This document shows positions 22,038 to 47,332 of a stretch of DNA of 64,000 nucleotides, in pieces (position 1 is the stretch's first letter; every line of letters begins with the position of its first letter). The position numbers were made by a program, and so were the translations under genes. This DNA is from Patescibacteria group bacterium. Lineage in GTDB: Bacteria > Patescibacteriota > Patescibacteriia > UBA2591 > JAQWAS01. The notes under the pieces were generated by a model. That model saw nothing but the letters and a program-made list of their open reading frames with translations, ran no database searches and was not told the origin of the DNA. Where the stretch lies: the NCBI GenBank assembly GCA_028707495.1, contig JAQWAS010000003.1:47711-111710 (forward strand). The letters run 5' to 3'.

Positions 22038-22430
22038 AATATCTCCTTTTTTAAGTTGCGATTGTTTTTTGTTTGTATTGTCATCTTAGCGTTTTGTTGT
22101 AAACATGTCAAGAGTTGGGTGAATAGTTTGATCATCCCTTCTGACCGCCGAATCGTTTGCCAGCTGACCCGTCAGTAGACAGGATTCAGCGTTAAACGTT
22201 TCTCTCGCCGTCATTCCTGGCTCCCGCCCGCTGGCGGGCAGGTGACCGGGAATCCAGGGTAAAAAATAAGTATTTTATTTTAGAATAAGTATTGTTAAAT
22301 CTAAAAAGTATTTTTTAAAGCAAAATATCTATTAGCTAACCTTGGATCCCCACTTTCGTGAGGATGACGGAAAGAGAAGTGGGATGACTTTCCTACTCTT
22401 GACCTATTTTGAAGCTATGCTATAATATAA

Positions 22431-23673: not shown

Positions 23674-23797
23674 TGTCATTCTAAAGTGGATCCGCCAGCT
23701 GGCGGACGATTCGGCAGGCGGAACGATAGAATCCTGAGGGCAGATCTCTAAAACAATGGGATTCTATCGCTCCATTTCATTCCGCTCCAGAATGACC
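23674..23797. mobile_element. MITE-like element, variant A: termini TGTCATTCT...AGAATGAC, with internal palindromes
   Basis: Internal palindromes are CCGCCAGCTGGCGG and GATAGAATCC...GGATTCTATC. Confidence 0.5.
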
Positions 23798-23808
23798 GGT
23801 TTAAAAAG

Positions 23809-23930
23809 TGTCATCCTGAATTTATTTCAGGATCTGAAATCAGAATAAACGTTTCTTTAAAAAAGACACTCTAAGTGCCAACAGATTCTGAAACATCCTC
23901 CGATTTGGCGGACTAGAGTTCAGAATGACA
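23809..23930. mobile_element. MITE-like element, family B, about 122 bp: TGTCATCCTGAATTTATTTCAGGATC ... AGATTCTGAAACATCCTCCGATTTGGCGGACTAGAGTTCAGAATGACA
   Basis: A near-identical copy lies at 47443-47564 and a more diverged one at 34573-34674. Three tandem TTCAGRATGRCA motifs follow at 23920-23990. Confidence 0.65.
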
Positions 23931-24086
23931 GTTGTTTGTTCAGAATGGCAGTTGTCGGTTCAGGATGACAAGGAGTTATTTTAGGACGACAAAGGGTGGA
24001 TTTTTAATAATATTTTAATAAATAAAAAAATTAATTTTATTCGAACTAGCTCAAAGACATTTAAAGTCGGAGACTAGCGTCGAATC

Positions 24087-44058: not shown

Positions 44059-44907
44059 ATGATTTACGATGTTTTGCCGATAGCTGTTATAGTTTTCTGT
44101 CTCATAATTATTTTTTTTATTTGTTTTAAGAAATTTTCACGTTTAGCTAATGTGAATTTAGATAAAATTCCGACGGAAAAATATCAACGTGTTAAGCAAG
44201 AAATTTTACAGAAAAAACTTAAACGTTCTTTGGAAGAATGGGGGATTAAAGTTAAAGATAATTTAAAGATAAATAATTCTTTTTTGAATCAAAAAATGGG
44301 CTTATTGAATGAAAAAATAACTAATTTAGAAAAAAAATATCGTCATAGTCAGAAGAATTTTTTAAAAAAGAGTCCAAAATTACTTAAATATAAAGTTGAT
44401 AAATTAATTTTAGCTGGTAAAAAATTAATTGAGCAAGAAAAATTAAATGAAGCTGAAAAGTGTTTTATTGAAATTATTTCTTTAGACAATAACAATTTAA
44501 ATGCTTATCGTTATCTAGGTGAAATTTATTTAAAGCAAAAAGATTTGTCGCACGCCAAGCAGACATTTGATTATATTTTAGATTTGAACTTGAAAGAGTT
44601 TAAAAAAGCATTAAATGATAAAAAAGATGACACAATTAGTGCAATTAAAAATGAATTAGCTAAAATTTATTTTGACTTGGGCGAAATGTATAATTTAAAA
44701 GAAAAATTCGATTTGGCTAGAAAAAACTTGGAAAAATCTTTAGAGTTTTCTCCCAAAAACCCAAAATACCTTGACTTTTTATGTAATTTGTATATAATTT
44801 TAAAAGATAAAGAACAGGCACAAAAAATATTAGCTCGCTTAAAAGATGTCAATCCCGATAATCAAAAAATAGTGGATTTACAAGATCAAGTTAATAAATT
44901 AAAATAA
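44059..44907 (+). CDS. TPR-repeat protein with an N-terminal TM helix
   Basis: Repeated A..YLGEIY..L.A...F motifs. Confidence 0.6.
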   Translation: MIYDVLPIAVIVFCLIIIFFICFKKFSRLANVNLDKIPTEKYQRVKQEILQKKLKRSLEEWGIKVKDNLKINNSFLNQKMGLLNEKITNLEKKYRHSQKNFLKKSPKLLKYKVDKLILAGKKLIEQEKLNEAEKCFIEIISLDNNNLNAYRYLGEIYLKQKDLSHAKQTFDYILDLNLKEFKKALNDKKDDTISAIKNELAKIYFDLGEMYNLKEKFDLARKNLEKSLEFSPKNPKYLDFLCNLYIILKDKEQAQKILARLKDVNPDNQKIVDLQDQVNKLK

Positions 44908-44913
44908 AATTAT

Positions 44914-44989
44914 GCCCACTTAGCTCAGCTGGTAGAGCAACTCCATGGTAAGGAGTAGGTCCGCGGTTCAAGTCCGCGAGTGGGCTCCA
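44914..44989 (+). tRNA. tRNA-Thr (GGU)
   Basis: Hand-folded cloverleaf. Anticodon loop ATGGTAA. CCA encoded. Confidence 0.85.
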
Positions 44990-45022
44990 TATTTTTTTGT
45001 TAATTAATAATTATTTTAATTG

Positions 45023-45108
45023 GGGCAGGTACCAAAGCGGTCAACTGGGTCAGACTGTAAATCTGATGGCTTTCGCCTTCGTAGGTCCGAATCCTACCCT
45101 GCCCACCA
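45023..45108 (+). tRNA. tRNA-Tyr (GUA), class II with a long variable arm
   Basis: Anticodon loop CTGTAAA. A long variable arm. CCA encoded. Confidence 0.85.
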
Positions 45109-45194
45109 AATTAACCGATAATTAACAACTGACAACTCATAATTCAAGTTTAAAACAAGTTGTAAGTTAATAGTTATAGGTTATAAGTTATTGT

Positions 45195-45271
45195 GGGCCC
45201 ATAGCTCAGTTGGCTAGAGCACTTGCATGGCATGCAAGGGGTCGGGAGTTCGAGTCTCCCTGGGTCCACCA
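45195..45271 (+). tRNA. tRNA-Ala (GGC) with a G3:U70 pair
   Basis: Acceptor GGGCCCA/TGGGTCC. Anticodon loop ATGGCAT. Confidence 0.85.
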
Positions 45272-45318
45272 AGATAACTAACGATTTACAACTTAAGCTG
45301 TGGGTTAAAAGTTCTTTG

Positions 45319-45395
45319 GGGCATATAGCTCAGTTGGTTAGAGCGTCACGTTGACATCGTGAAGGTCCGTGGTTCGAGTCCACGTATGCCCACCA
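45319..45395 (+). tRNA. tRNA-Val (GAC)
   Basis: Anticodon loop TTGACAT. Confidence 0.85.
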
Positions 45396-45396
45396 T

Positions 45397-45472
45397 GCCA
45401 CCCTAGCTCAGCTGGTAGAGCAACTGTTTTGTAAACAGTAGGTCGTCGGTTCGAGTCCGACGGGTGGCTCCA
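45397..45472 (+). tRNA. tRNA-Thr (UGU)
   Basis: Anticodon loop TTTGTAA. It lies 1 nt after tRNA-Val. Confidence 0.85.
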
Positions 45473-45476
45473 AGAA

Positions 45477-45517
45477 AACAGTAGGTCGCCCGCCAAATCG
45501 GCGGACGGGTGGCCCCA
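45477..45517 (+). pseudogene. Degenerate duplicate of the 3' half of tRNA-Thr(UGU) (AACAGTAGGTCG...GACGGGTGGCCCCA)
   Basis: It aligns to positions 38-76 of the adjacent tRNA but has a disrupted T-arm. Confidence 0.5.
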
Positions 45518-45605
45518 GAATAACTAATAACTAACAACTAATAATTAATAATCAATATTTAATATTTAATATTTAATATTTAACATTTAACATTTAATAA
45601 AACAT

Positions 45606-45761
45606 ATGTCACAAGAAAGTTTGATAAAATTGGAGTGTACTGAATGTCATCGAATTAATTATTTTTCTCATAAAAATAAGAAAAAAATTAAAGATCGTTT
45701 GGAACTAAATAAATTTTGTACGCATTGTAAAAAACATACTCTACACAAAGAAACTAAGTAG
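45606..45761 (+). CDS. rpmG: 50S ribosomal protein L33
   Basis: [51 protein letters not shown], with the classic C4 zinc ribbon. It is not in the ORF track. Confidence 0.85.
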
Positions 45762-45781
45762 TACGCTTAGTTTCTTTTTGT

Positions 45782-45817
45782 GCGGGTGTCGTATAGTGGT
45801 AGTACAGGGGTCTCCAA
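45782..45817 (+). pseudogene. Displaced 5' half of tRNA-Trp (positions 1-36, ending in the anticodon loop). The palindrome CCCGCCTTTCGCGAAAGGCGGG at 45819-45840 follows it.
   Basis: Identical to the first 36 nt of the intact tRNA-Trp at 46140. Confidence 0.7.
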
Positions 45818-45877
45818 TCCCGCCTTTCGCGAAAGGCGGGACGATTCTCAGCTTAATATTTTAAACAAAATGTTTAT

Positions 45878-46126
45878 ATGTATTCTGTTTATTTATTAAG
45901 AAGTTTAAAAGATAAAAATTTGTATATAGGTTCTACTTTTGATTTAAAATCTAGATATACTCAACATTTAGAAGGTAAGGTGATATCAACCAAAAATAGA
46001 AGACCATTAGAATTAATTTATTATGAAGCTTATAATGATAAATTATTAGCACAAGAAAGAGAACGAAAATTAAAACAATTTGGCTCATCTTATCGGGGAT
46101 TAATTAAAAGATTAAATATAAAATAA
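45878..46126 (+). CDS. Small GIY-YIG nuclease family protein (YhbQ/UPF0213-like)
   Basis: YSVYLLRSLKDKNLYIGSTFDLKSRYTQHLEGK...ELIYYEAYNDKLLAQERERKLK. Confidence 0.8.
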   Translation: MYSVYLLRSLKDKNLYIGSTFDLKSRYTQHLEGKVISTKNRRPLELIYYEAYNDKLLAQERERKLKQFGSSYRGLIKRLNIK

Positions 46127-46139
46127 TTAGTTAATATTT

Positions 46140-46213
46140 GCGGGTGTCGTATAGTGGTAGTACAGGGGTCTCCAAAACCTCTAGCGGGGGTTCGATTCCC
46201 TCCACCCGTGCCA
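46140..46213 (+). tRNA. tRNA-Trp (CCA)
   Basis: Acceptor GCGGGTG/CACCCGT. Anticodon loop CTCCAAA. T-loop TTCGATT. CCA encoded. Confidence 0.85.
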
Positions 46214-46237
46214 TAATTATTTAAGGGTTCTCACTCA

Positions 46238-46280
46238 GCGGGTGACCAGCCTCTAGCTGGGATTCCCTCCACCCGTGCCA
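46238..46280 (+). pseudogene. Degenerate, internally deleted tRNA-Trp copy (GCGGGTGAC..CCTCTAGCTGGGATTCCCTCCACCCGTGCCA)
   Basis: It matches the 3' part of tRNA-Trp but has a damaged T-arm. Confidence 0.5.
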
Positions 46281-46309
46281 TTGTGTAATGAGAATAAATT
46301 TTAAATTTT

Positions 46310-47332
46310 ATGTTGAACTTAGACAATAAAAATAAAAAATTAATTTGGATTATTTTAGCGGTGGCGTTTTTGCCGATGTTTTTACAAAATAAATTTTTGC
46401 TTGGGCTGTTAATTGCTATTATAATTATTTATTTAATATTTAAAAAATTAAAAAACAAATCTATGGATAATCAACCCATTAATATAAGCAATTTTAAGGG
46501 TTTTAAAAATGCTAAGAAAATTTTATGGATAACCGTGCTGGTTGTTTTTGTTTTATGGTTGTTTTTGGCTTCAATTCAAATTGTCGATGCGGGCGAGACG
46601 GGAGTTTATTCTTTGTTTGGCAAGGTCAGCGACAATGAAAGATCATCAGGTTTCCATTTAATTATCCCCTTGGCTAAATTAACAAAAATGGGTATTCGGA
46701 CGGAAGAATATACGATGAGTATTATAAGTAACGAAGGTAAAAAAACTGGGGCAGACGCCATTACGGCTTTAACCAAAGAGGGTTTAAGCGTTGATTTAGA
46801 TATTACAGTTTTGTATCGTCTTAATGAAAATCAAGCTTCAGATGTTTATAAAAACGTAGGTTTAAATTACGAGGAAAAAATTATTCGACCAGCTATTCGC
46901 AGCACCATTCGTGAAGTTATAGCACAATACGAAGCTAAAGATATTTATTCAGAAAAAAGAGCTGAGGCAACGCAAGGCATTAAAATTAGTTTAGAGACTC
47001 AAATTAATCCATGTGGGATTATTATCGAAGAGGTCTTATTAAGAAATGTGGTTTTGCCAGCTAATTTAGCCAATTCAATTCAGGAAAAGCTTCAAGCAGA
47101 GCAGGAAGCTCAAAAATACGATTTCTTATTGCAAACAGAGAAAAAGGAAAAAGAACGTAAGATTATTGAAGCTGAAGGGCAGAGAGACTCTCAGGCAATT
47201 ATTAATCAAAGTTTAACCACTAATTATTTATATTATCAATATATTAAAGAGCTAGAAAATCGCGAAGGTACAATTTATGTGCCAACTAATCCAAGCACGG
47301 GCATGCCAATGTTTAGGGATGTTGGATACTAA
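46310..47332 (+). CDS. SPFH/Band-7 (prohibitin/HflK-like) membrane protein. The start is uncertain.
   Basis: Two N-terminal TM helices, then an SPFH core (VDAGETGVYSLFGKV...) and a coiled-coil tail. Confidence 0.7.
   Translation: MLNLDNKNKKLIWIILAVAFLPMFLQNKFLLGLLIAIIIIYLIFKKLKNKSMDNQPINISNFKGFKNAKKILWITVLVVFVLWLFLASIQIVDAGETGVYSLFGKVSDNERSSGFHLIIPLAKLTKMGIRTEEYTMSIISNEGKKTGADAITALTKEGLSVDLDITVLYRLNENQASDVYKNVGLNYEEKIIRPAIRSTIREVIAQYEAKDIYSEKRAEATQGIKISLETQINPCGIIIEEVLLRNVVLPANLANSIQEKLQAEQEAQKYDFLLQTEKKEKERKIIEAEGQRDSQAIINQSLTTNYLYYQYIKELENREGTIYVPTNPSTGMPMFRDVGY

Follow-up and report, generated by a model that had tools for sequence, protein, structure and literature searches.

Background

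In fungal mitochondria, GIY-YIG open reading frames (ORFs), for example that of Allomyces atp6, bring with them a replacement end for the gene that they enter, and the old end becomes a pseudogene. Mobile GC-rich palindromes are found as the GC clusters of yeast mitochondria, the Rickettsia palindromic elements and the repetitive extragenic palindromic (REP) sequences coupled to RAYT proteins, and group I introns are present in tRNA genes of cyanobacteria. Within the Patescibacteria, group I introns interrupt the genes for tRNA-Asn and for tRNA-Asp at position 35/36 (PMC13011429), and in phage T4 the gene of SegB, a free-standing, site-specific GIY-YIG endonuclease, resides in a cluster of tRNA genes (PMC2330249). 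Here we describe a cassette of 358 nucleotides (nt), composed of a small GIY-YIG nuclease gene, a GC-rich palindrome and a duplicated tRNA 5' half, that lies within the tRNA-Trp gene of a Patescibacteria group bacterium (GenBank assembly GCA_028707495.1). The DNA analyzed is a 64,000-nt stretch of contig JAQWAS010000003.1 (positions 47,711 to 111,710 of the forward strand), referred to below as the window, and coordinates are those of the window.

Like the cassette gene, segB is a GIY-YIG gene alone among tRNA genes, with no intron, and SegB promotes its own inheritance together with that of neighboring tRNA sequence: it cuts the allele from which it is missing, and repair and co-conversion follow, which resembles what we propose below. 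SegB, however, is a larger phage protein encoded between tRNA genes, whereas the cassette encodes a catalytic-only Slx1/UPF0213 protein of 82 amino acids (aa) inside a tRNA gene, and includes a replacement 5' half and a constant palindrome, in a cellular Patescibacteria genome. The tRNA group I introns, which may or may not include homing endonuclease genes, share with the cassette the phylum, an anticodon-loop target and the occupation of an essential gene without killing it, but the cassette has no ribozyme and the rescue is by a duplicated half in DNA, not by RNA splicing; the description of the patescibacterial introns mentions neither GIY-YIG nor tRNA-Trp nor palindromes (PMC13011429). 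In islands and prophages with a tyrosine integrase, a partial tRNA copy likewise reconstitutes the gene and a partial copy is left as a direct repeat; these elements span kilobases, encode an integrase and usually duplicate the 3' part of the gene. In the cassette, which measures 358 nt and encodes no recombinase, it is the 5' part that is duplicated, and a hairpin marks the junction.

The mitochondrial GIY-YIG ORFs resemble the cassette in that an adjacent gene segment is co-transferred, the host gene is kept intact and a displaced fragment is left behind, but they concern the 3' ends of protein genes in organelles, in contrast to a tRNA 5' half with an obligatory palindrome in bacteria. With the mobile GC clusters the cassette shares a short GC-rich hairpin in an AT-rich genome, reproducible insertion points and possibly a dedicated enzyme; its palindrome differs in being tied to one nuclease gene and to tRNA breakpoints, and in occurring once in the window. 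To the stand-alone Slx1-like proteins (UPF0213; PDB 1zg2, 1ywl; PMC1564403) the nuclease is linked by sequence and fold membership and by its minimal domain. In none of the closest precedents is a catalytic-only Slx1-like nuclease joined with an obligatory palindrome that co-evolves with it and with a duplicated 5' half that rescues the gene in DNA. The arrangement was not found described in searches of the open-access literature; an earlier note on this DNA, made from the sequence alone, had likewise seen no description of a small GIY-YIG gene with a tRNA anticodon loop as its attachment site. Attachment site is a stronger term, in that it would imply site-specific recombination.

Anatomy of the cassette

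The cassette is delimited by an exact 37-nt direct repeat (45781-45817 and 46139-46175, offset 358 nt), found by a repeat search, of which blastn aligns 36/36 positions with the tRNA. The repeat corresponds to linear positions 1-36 of tRNA-Trp plus one upstream T, and, since linear position 36 is the canonical A37, one base 3' of the CCA anticodon, the break falls between canonical positions 37 and 38. Copy 1 (45781..45817, plus strand, as are all the parts that follow) is a displaced 5' half that ends after A37. Copy 2 forms, with 46139, the first 36 nt of an intact tRNA-Trp(CCA) gene (46140..46213; ARAGORN; Rfam, 60.6 bits), which is the sole tRNA-Trp detected by either program within the 64-kb window; its 5' half was presumably brought in by the cassette. 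Abutting the upstream half, at the left end of the insert, is a perfect 24-nt GC-rich palindrome, TCCCGCCTTTCGCGAAAGGCGGGA (45818..45841), designated HP and assigned to type 1, whose CCCGCC..GGCGGG pattern would be expected 0.01 times by chance according to shuffles of the window (32% GC). Next comes CGATTC (45842..45847), in which we see a T-loop relic (canonical 56-61 of the tRNA) that accompanies the palindrome: in type 1 relatives HP is succeeded by CGATTCC and then by the 3' strands of the T-stem and acceptor stem. After a short AT-rich spacer comes the nuclease gene (45878..46126; 82 aa plus stop; Pfam PF01541; clade A), and the intact tRNA-Trp begins 13 nt past its stop codon. The inserted unit of 358 nt therefore consists of HP with the T-loop relic, the nuclease gene and a copy of tRNA-Trp 1-36. 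The earlier note had named these parts, with a 36-nt half at 45782-45817, the palindrome followed by the 82-aa gene, and 46140-46213 as the intact tRNA-Trp, and each was recovered.

Upstream, the gene for ribosomal protein L33, rpmG (45606..45761, plus strand; Pfam PF00471, E=5.3e-19), which is the conserved neighbor of tRNA-Trp on that side, ends 20 nt before the displaced half, and its terminator hairpin, an inverted repeat at 45743-45781, ends exactly at the start of that half. A sister contig from another sample (L185, JGI 3300035208; loci of relatives are numbered with the prefix L) matches the window at 98% over ~1.28 kb and has the same cassette with no visible difference, so that the structure is not an assembly accident confined to one data set.

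These features can be set against those of several classes of element. The exact 37-nt repeat is a tRNA-segment direct repeat flanking the element, as in integrative elements; between the repeats the plus strand has a single ORF of 40 aa or more, which is that of the GIY-YIG nuclease, so no recombinase is encoded in the cassette, and an integrase-mediated island was rejected as there is no recombinase ORF in or beside it. As regards the terminal inverted repeats and short target-site duplication of insertion sequences and miniature inverted-repeat transposable elements (MITEs), the cassette of the window carries a single palindrome, which is at its left end, and shows no short duplication; in clade B relatives the palindrome is at both ends, with TCCA repeated. 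The break between 37 and 38 is also the classical position of tRNA introns, and Patescibacteria have group I introns in tRNA anticodon loops (PMC13011429), so that the upstream 5' half could be spliced to the 3' half, in group I or archaeal fashion, with the nuclease gene inside an intron. This we find scarcely credible: no group I or other intron model matches 44800-46500 at Rfam E<=10, merely ~60 nt of the insert lie outside the ORF and the repeated half, a complete and uninterrupted tRNA-Trp gene follows, and in L002 and L015 the upstream half has decayed to the anticodon loop while the intact tRNA is retained. An archaeal-type split gene or bulge-helix-bulge intron was likewise rejected, as no complementary exon-intron helix was seen by eye at the junction and an intact gene follows. 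The earlier note had considered that the 5' half might belong to a longer structured RNA; for a known RNA spanning it, Rfam at E<=10 gave only SQ1002, an AT-rich, sub-threshold match of 30 bits against a gathering score of 128, and at the same threshold neither the displaced half nor a tRNA remnant downstream was scored as a tRNA. Since all the tRNA copies within the window are identical, it is only from relatives that one can learn which of them is resident, in what direction the event went and how old it is.

Recurrence among relatives

The design [tRNA 5' part]-[palindrome]-[GIY-YIG]-[intact tRNA] is present in dozens of Patescibacteria contigs, mostly at tRNA-Trp and also at tRNA-Cys, tRNA-Met and tRNA-Thr. 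Among 83 relatives of the GIY-YIG gene in species-representative genomes, 26 have a tRNA that starts on the same strand no more than 100 nt past the end of the ORF (17 Trp, 4 Cys, 2 Met, 2 Pro and 1 Leu) and four others have one just upstream of the gene; by chance ~0.2 would be expected, if ~45 tRNA genes per Mb are assumed, which is our own estimate. Locus L001, for instance, begins with a 36-nt copy of its own, different tRNA-Trp, continues with CCCGCCCTTCGCGAAGGGCGGG, CGATTCC and the ORF, and ends with the intact tRNA. The 5' half is identical to the locus's own tRNA at 36/36 positions in L001, L014, L029 and L034 and partly diverged in others, and in all the loci inspected the element-borne repeat starts 0-4 nt from the tRNA 5' end. 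At tRNA-Met in Omnitrophota the same design is found with the break in the D-loop, and L128 has a cassette of 5' part, hairpin, GIY-YIG gene and intact tRNA in tRNA-Thr(GGT), while in L060 fragments of tRNA-Gly and tRNA-Leu adjoin the two GIY-YIG genes.

The arrangement is also visible in protein databases, where records of several homologues have an N-terminal extension, such as VSYSGSTEVSNPAARE, that is the translation of a tRNA-Trp 5' half plus palindrome. Public gene calls are often extended in this way, upstream through palindrome and tRNA half, as in P0014, P0020, P0025, P0121, P0122, P0126, P0148 and P0155; the spurious N-termini VSNPA.RE, SPTP.. and GLQPR.. correspond to TCTCCAA plus palindrome in three frames. 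Protein records P0216, P0156 and P0269 begin with translated whole tRNAs.

Decayed copies are present as well. In L107 (~270-560) and L162 a palindrome is fused to the tRNA-Trp 3' end (GCCA-CGTCGCTCGCGAGCG..TGGC) with no intact nuclease gene, and L107 keeps a decayed GIY-YIG frame (..KLVYYEAYIT..); such copies fit the degeneration phase expected of a selfish gene. A different GC palindrome, CCTGCCTGCCGGCAGGCAGG, is seen in the D-loop of tRNA-like sequence in L109 (1524-1547) and L152 (2001-2024), with further copies elsewhere on both contigs, and these genomes may more generally tend to have palindromes within sequence derived from tRNAs.

Empty sites and the junction

To sample tRNA-Trp loci blind to the nuclease gene, metagenome contigs were scanned with the 32-nt core of the intact tRNA-Trp, which gave 95 loci. 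A cassette gene lies within 700 nt of the tRNA in 12 of them and is lacking in 83, a presence/absence polymorphism at one homologous site that is a trait of homing genes; rpmG ends no more than 120 nt upstream of the tRNA in 34 of the 95. The check that the earlier note had proposed, a search of relatives for an rpmG-tRNA-Trp site lacking the insert, found such sites, and its view of the insertion as derived within a conserved synteny agrees with how common rpmG-tRNA-Trp is among relatives that have no cassette. In two of these empty loci, L130 and L093, the tRNA-Trp is 2-3/74 bases off that of the window, with all the differences in the last four positions, and neither cassette nor remnants are found. 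Some of the empty loci with so similar a tRNA have rpmG as its immediate upstream neighbor.

The junction is best seen in the empty locus L127 and the occupied locus L133, which have in common a 52-nt upstream flank with a promoter-like TTGATT...TATAAT motif recognized by eye. In L127 this flank runs directly into the intact tRNA; in L133 it runs into a displaced 5' half that matches the L127 tRNA at 36/36 positions. The L133 insert comprises HP, a T-loop relic from a different type of tRNA-Trp, the ORF, the bases 'cat' and a 5' half with one difference. The empty sites and the shared flank imply that the insertion is derived, that the upstream half is the resident one and that the cassette supplies the 5' half of the working gene. 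At some loci the gap between rpmG and tRNA-Trp is 0.9-2.7 kb; other mobile inserts were considered as the cause and rejected, as most of these gaps hold a similar gene for a multi-pass membrane protein, which resembles the AI-2E-family gene upstream of the L001 cassette and represents ordinary synteny.

Foreign tRNA pieces and by-products

Several loci contain tRNA sequence that did not originate in the resident gene and that moves along with the cassette, which speaks for horizontal movement. In L023, the upstream 5' half and a 3' half far downstream pair perfectly with each other (7/7 in the acceptor stem, 5/5 in the anticodon stem) and neither pairs fully with the intact tRNA that lies between them; a resident tRNA-Trp has been split by a unit of HP, gene, complete foreign tRNA-Trp and HP. 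L023, L056 and L086, all of clade B, have HP at both ends and a whole foreign tRNA inside. In L011, where two cassettes are nested, the inner half matches the window tRNA at 33/36 positions and its own tRNA at 26/36, and the same imperfect HP is also present in a remnant derived from the resident tRNA. Further by-products are a tandem duplicate in L029 and arrays of HP-bearing remnants in L015 and L022.

These data bear on whether the locus is mobile at all. A local tandem duplication of tRNA-Trp could have decayed around a housekeeping, tRNA-linked GIY-YIG gene, the palindrome being a signal for transcription or processing; every tRNA-derived copy in the window is identical to the local tRNA, prokaryotic Slx1-like genes adjoin or are fused with tRNA-modification genes (PMC1564403), and the order of parts differs among relatives, all as such a history would have it. 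We nevertheless consider it very improbable, in view of the presence and absence of the cassette among genomes whose tRNAs are 2-3/74 bases apart, the foreign tRNA halves and whole foreign tRNAs within the locus, the identity of breakpoint and HP between tRNA-Trp and tRNA-Cys in genomes that are unrelated, and the nested and decayed copies. The earlier proposal that an element with its own tRNA 5' half was inserted at the anticodon loop is supported by the empty sites, the L127/L133 junction, the recurrence and the foreign pieces together.

The manner of entry is a separate matter. A small circle made of the gene and an HP-tRNA (1-37 + HP + 56-66) might enter by a single Campbell-type crossover in the 36-nt homology, perhaps helped by nicking of HP by the nuclease, and leave by recombination between the direct repeats, which would restore the empty tRNA. 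One crossover in the 5' half would yield the structure of the window, with its 36-37-nt repeats and sharp HP boundary; L008 and L018 have complete HP-tRNA units (1-37 + HP + 56-76) that stand separately next to the gene; the tandem [5' half-HP-gene]x2 of L029 resembles two integrations or a dimer; and the start of the element-borne repeat close to the tRNA 5' end points the same way. Such a circle is nonetheless unlikely in our judgment, for no recombinase is encoded, 36 nt is short for efficient homologous recombination, extra steps are required for the clade B loci, where each end has an HP and a complete foreign tRNA lies within, and no free circle junction was seen, although this would be indistinguishable from a tandem array.

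The nuclease

The 82-aa ORF matches the Pfam GIY-YIG domain PF01541 over residues 1-67 (E=1.4e-15, 57.8 bits, cut-off 22.6), and an identical protein is on public record for 'Patescibacteria group bacterium'. In an alignment of 31 homologues, Y5, Y16, G18, R26, H30 and E62, the GIY-YIG catalytic set, are invariant, and we take Y5, Y16, R26, H30 and E62 to be the equivalents of I-TevI Y6, Y17, R27, H31 and E75. Clade A, to which the protein belongs, also has a C-terminal motif, KLKQFGSxY.GL.KRL. The AlphaFold model has a mean predicted local distance difference test (pLDDT) score of 94.6, and with its catalytic residues invariant and the model confident, the gene looks functional.

The earlier note had described a homing-endonuclease-type fold. 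The GIY-YIG domain stands; the homing type, with a DNA-binding domain, does not. A single GIY-YIG domain fills the whole protein, with no C-terminal DNA-binding domain, unlike I-TevI and the Seg type, and TIGR01453, the model for group I intron endonucleases, scores 24 bits against a cut-off of 56. A profile built from the alignment of homologues, compared with PDB, gave BH0048 (UPF0213, E=1.9e-10), EF2693 (5.5e-8), SLX1 (2.7e-3) and UvrC (9.8e-3), and in a fold search with the model the UPF0213 and Slx1 nuclease domains reached TMq 0.58-0.70, against at most 0.57 for the I-TevI catalytic domain. As UPF0213 and Slx1 come best in both searches, the sequence and predicted fold indicate a minimal, stand-alone Slx1/UPF0213-type domain and not an I-TevI-type homing endonuclease.

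The family is large, with 3,726 clusters at 50% identity reaching E<=1e-3. To our knowledge, no function has been assigned to the UPF0213/prokaryotic Slx1-like family. COG4123 is presumably a tRNA m6A37 methylase. In the survey of Dunin-Horkawicz et al., the prokaryotic Slx1-like group typically has no auxiliary domains, the Slx-1 cluster shows fusions or operons with RNA/tRNA methyltransferase-like genes, and neither function nor mobility is assigned to the stand-alone family (PMC1564403). Slx1 itself cuts branched and stem-loop DNA (PMC6902002). A role in defense was rejected, PADLOC giving no match for the 82-aa protein, and so was carriage by phages, since among 2.9 million viral contigs there were merely 2 weak relatives and PHROG matches were marginal.

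The palindrome and the nuclease clades

In the clade of the window, the 24-nt type 1 HP replaces canonical tRNA positions 38-55. Among 29 distinct HPs, 97.6% of cells are paired and compensatory changes are seen in 8/10 pairs, and the center, TCGCGA, is near-invariant, with two single-base exceptions. In relatives HP lies at the identical junction, exactly at the breakpoint. TCGCGA-centered palindromes are found in 6/12 tRNA-Trp loci with the gene and 2/83 without it (Fisher p=2.6e-5), one of the two adjoining a decayed gene, and the window holds one HP of this class, which is not dispersed. Protein clades obtained by clustering each have their own HP form and breakpoint: clade A, that of the window, a 24-nt HP at 37/38; clade B, a 26-nt HP located either in the D-loop or, with TCCA repeated, within the anticodon; clade C, a hairpin of 16 nt; and clade D, an HP joined to the CCA end, the gene lying downstream. 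Numerous GIY-YIG clades besides these have neither tRNA nor HP nearby, the tRNA-linked clades being a subset. Both at tRNA-Trp and at tRNA-Cys, the anticodon stem-loops of which are one base apart (GGTCTCCAAAACC in tRNA-Trp), complete HP-tRNA units (1-37 + HP + 56-76) stand next to the gene. To judge from these sequence comparisons, the palindrome is integral to the cassette and co-evolves with the nuclease, and is not incidental.

So close an association could mean that HP is the primary, MITE-like unit and the Slx1-like nuclease its structure-specific enzyme, with entry at the single-stranded loops of heavily transcribed or replicated tRNA genes, and the gene and the duplications carried along or selected later. 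Every breakpoint, whatever the clade, falls in a tRNA loop or at the 3' end (37/38, 35/36, D-loop, CCA end); in clade B each end of the insert has an HP, and TCCA (or CC) is repeated at both, in the manner of a target duplication; in L011 the same HP, imperfection included, is present in tRNA copies of foreign and of resident derivation; and the fold is nearest to Slx1, a cutter of branched and stem-loop DNA (PMC6902002). The hairpin of clade C, in addition, has a non-palindromic 4-nt loop, which favors a single-strand hairpin over a site for dimer binding. We rate such hairpin-guided insertion as quite improbable, still more so than a circle: type 1 HP replaces 18 nt instead of being inserted with a duplication, HP away from the nuclease gene is as rare as the 2/83 loci above indicate, and the single copy of this class in the window suggests that HP alone is not proliferating.

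A proposed mechanism

The observations are probably best explained by a minimal selfish cassette on tRNA genes, which spreads in a homing-like manner with no intron and rescues its host gene by duplication, not by splicing. The anatomy, the recurrence, the empty sites, the position of the junction, the foreign pieces and the co-variation of clade, HP and breakpoint are observed; the activity of the nuclease, its target, the route of repair and the part of HP are inferred, as follows. The nuclease would break or nick a cassette-free tRNA-Trp gene near the anticodon stem-loop (GGTCTCCAAAACC). Repair would proceed from an occupied copy, in which the displaced 5' half would be the pairing partner of the left end and the 3' half of the intact tRNA that of the right end, so as to copy HP, the nuclease gene and the 5' half into the target. 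The resident 5' half would thereby be pushed upstream, retaining the left flank with rpmG and its terminator, and the cassette-borne 5' half would join the resident 3' half, rebuilding a complete tRNA-Trp gene in DNA. These events would yield the structure of the window directly. With the tRNA rebuilt at the DNA level, an intron and splicing would be unnecessary. Since the nuclease gene lies just downstream of whatever drives tRNA-Trp transcription, and the tRNA follows 13 nt past its stop codon, the gene is probably transcribed from the upstream signals of the tRNA, and the tRNA would be cut out of a transcript common to both. The rebuilt tRNA would still be a target, and repair out of register would produce tandem, nested and truncated copies, which would account for the tandem L029, the nested L011 and the arrays of L015 and L022.

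Several points weigh against this explanation. The protein has a catalytic domain only and its nearest characterized relatives are structure-specific, so sequence-specific homing is not a given. The self-immunity usual in homing elements is absent, the rebuilt tRNA being near-identical to that of an empty locus (2-3/74); as it keeps the whole putative target, protection, if any, would not come from target disruption. Simple homing leaves the role of HP unexplained. The parts do not always come in the same order, the tRNA preceding the gene in L008, L012, L090 and L150 and HP abutting the tRNA 5' end in L009, so that more than one recombination route may operate. An all-against-all comparison of flanks found no occupied/empty pair from the same species, the best being L127/L133 with ~50 nt plus the tRNA, and the window by itself, its tRNA copies being identical, may be compatible with local duplication.

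A further reading would have the Slx1-like nuclease and its co-evolving hairpin recognize tRNA genes folded as single strands, at the anticodon loop, the D-loop or the CCA end, and insert there by a mechanism outside classical homing, site-specific recombination and known transposition. Such a pair would make up a minimal mobile element of a new class, which we regard as unlikely.

Remnants and other repeats in the window

Downstream of the intact tRNA-Trp, direct repeats to it reveal an internally deleted tRNA-Trp remnant (46224..46281, plus strand), which is composed of the acceptor 5' strand GCGGGTG (46238-46244), then CCAGC-CTCTA-GCTGG (46246-46260), a small hairpin, and finally 21 nt (46261-46281) in which the 3' end of the tRNA is repeated without a difference; a 16-nt stretch is 88% identical to tRNA 39-54. 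A homologous remnant in L015 has in common GGTTCTC..GACCAGCCTCTRGCTGG-GATTCC, and each of the two carries the acceptor strands of its own tRNA. Considered as a possible functional mini-helix RNA and folded as an acceptor stem plus hairpin, the remnant is not clearly better than shuffles (z=-2.3), and its L015 homologue is weaker. It is probably the scar of an earlier event, and it may be kept similar to the neighboring tRNA by gene conversion. The earlier note had placed the remnant at 46238-46280, where its acceptor-strand and 3'-end repeats were found, and had taken it for an older, decayed copy, which is a plausible origin.

The block shared with L185 is bounded on both sides by sequence that differs from the window (L185 1-400 and 1655-1761), with breakpoints inside the anticodon loop of tRNA-Thr(GGT) and inside the acceptor arm of tRNA-Trp. 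Upstream, a tRNA-Thr 3' half is preceded by the C-terminus of a tyrosine-integrase-like ORF (..LLGHSNIKMTEKYL..), which looks like a classical integrase island in tRNA-Thr(GGT), and downstream the acceptor 3' strand of tRNA-Trp and the flank both belong to another tRNA-Trp type (..CCCTCCGCGCCTGC). The edges represent either a real recombinant or an assembly chimera.

Other parts of the window show related features. Directly after the intact tRNA-Thr(TGT), at 45476-45518, its 3' half is repeated with a GC hairpin, CCCGCCAAATCGGCGG, in place of the T-arm, and this copy may be the scar of an element like the L128 cassette; between the tRNA cluster and rpmG, 45538-45596 is an AT-rich tandem repeat with a 14-nt period (TTAATATTTAATAT..). 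A second GIY-YIG ORF (15440-15736, 98 aa), 47% identical to the cassette protein over residues 2-68, lies 58 nt upstream of tRNA-Gln (15794-15867) and is bracketed by inverted GC hairpins, GTCATCCCCGCGTAGGCGGGGATCCAGG (15362-15389) and CTGGATTCCCGCCTACGCGGGAATGAC (15761-15787). No duplicated tRNA-Gln fragment was found near it, and 15362-15867 looks like a different member of the tRNA-linked theme, flanked by terminal inverted repeats. A family of intergenic GC-rich repeats of the form GTCATTC..hairpin..GAATCC, or its complement, stands out against the AT-rich rest of the genome, with copies at 15251-15305, 22209-22257, 22343-22390, 23675-23745, 23757-23800 and 23810-23990; in one copy, TCCGCCAGCTGGCGGA (23691-23706) is followed by CGATTC, as is the tRNA-Trp palindrome.

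Implications

If the proposed mechanism is correct, the cassette would represent a third way to live inside an essential RNA gene, by providing a spare half of the gene, as opposed to splicing out or integrating by means of a recombinase. At 358 nt it would be about as small as an autonomous element can be. It is also common in Patescibacteria, a group with reduced genomes in which rRNA and tRNA genes rich in introns were already known. The tRNA fragments at such loci can mislead tRNA counts in metagenome-assembled genomes, and an anticodon-loop-directed nuclease with a matching hairpin would be a possible tool, should its specificity prove programmable. The findings also give a concrete hypothesis for the function of prokaryotic Slx1-like/UPF0213 proteins, and recognition of folded tRNA genes by hairpin and nuclease, if true, would be the first role for this family.

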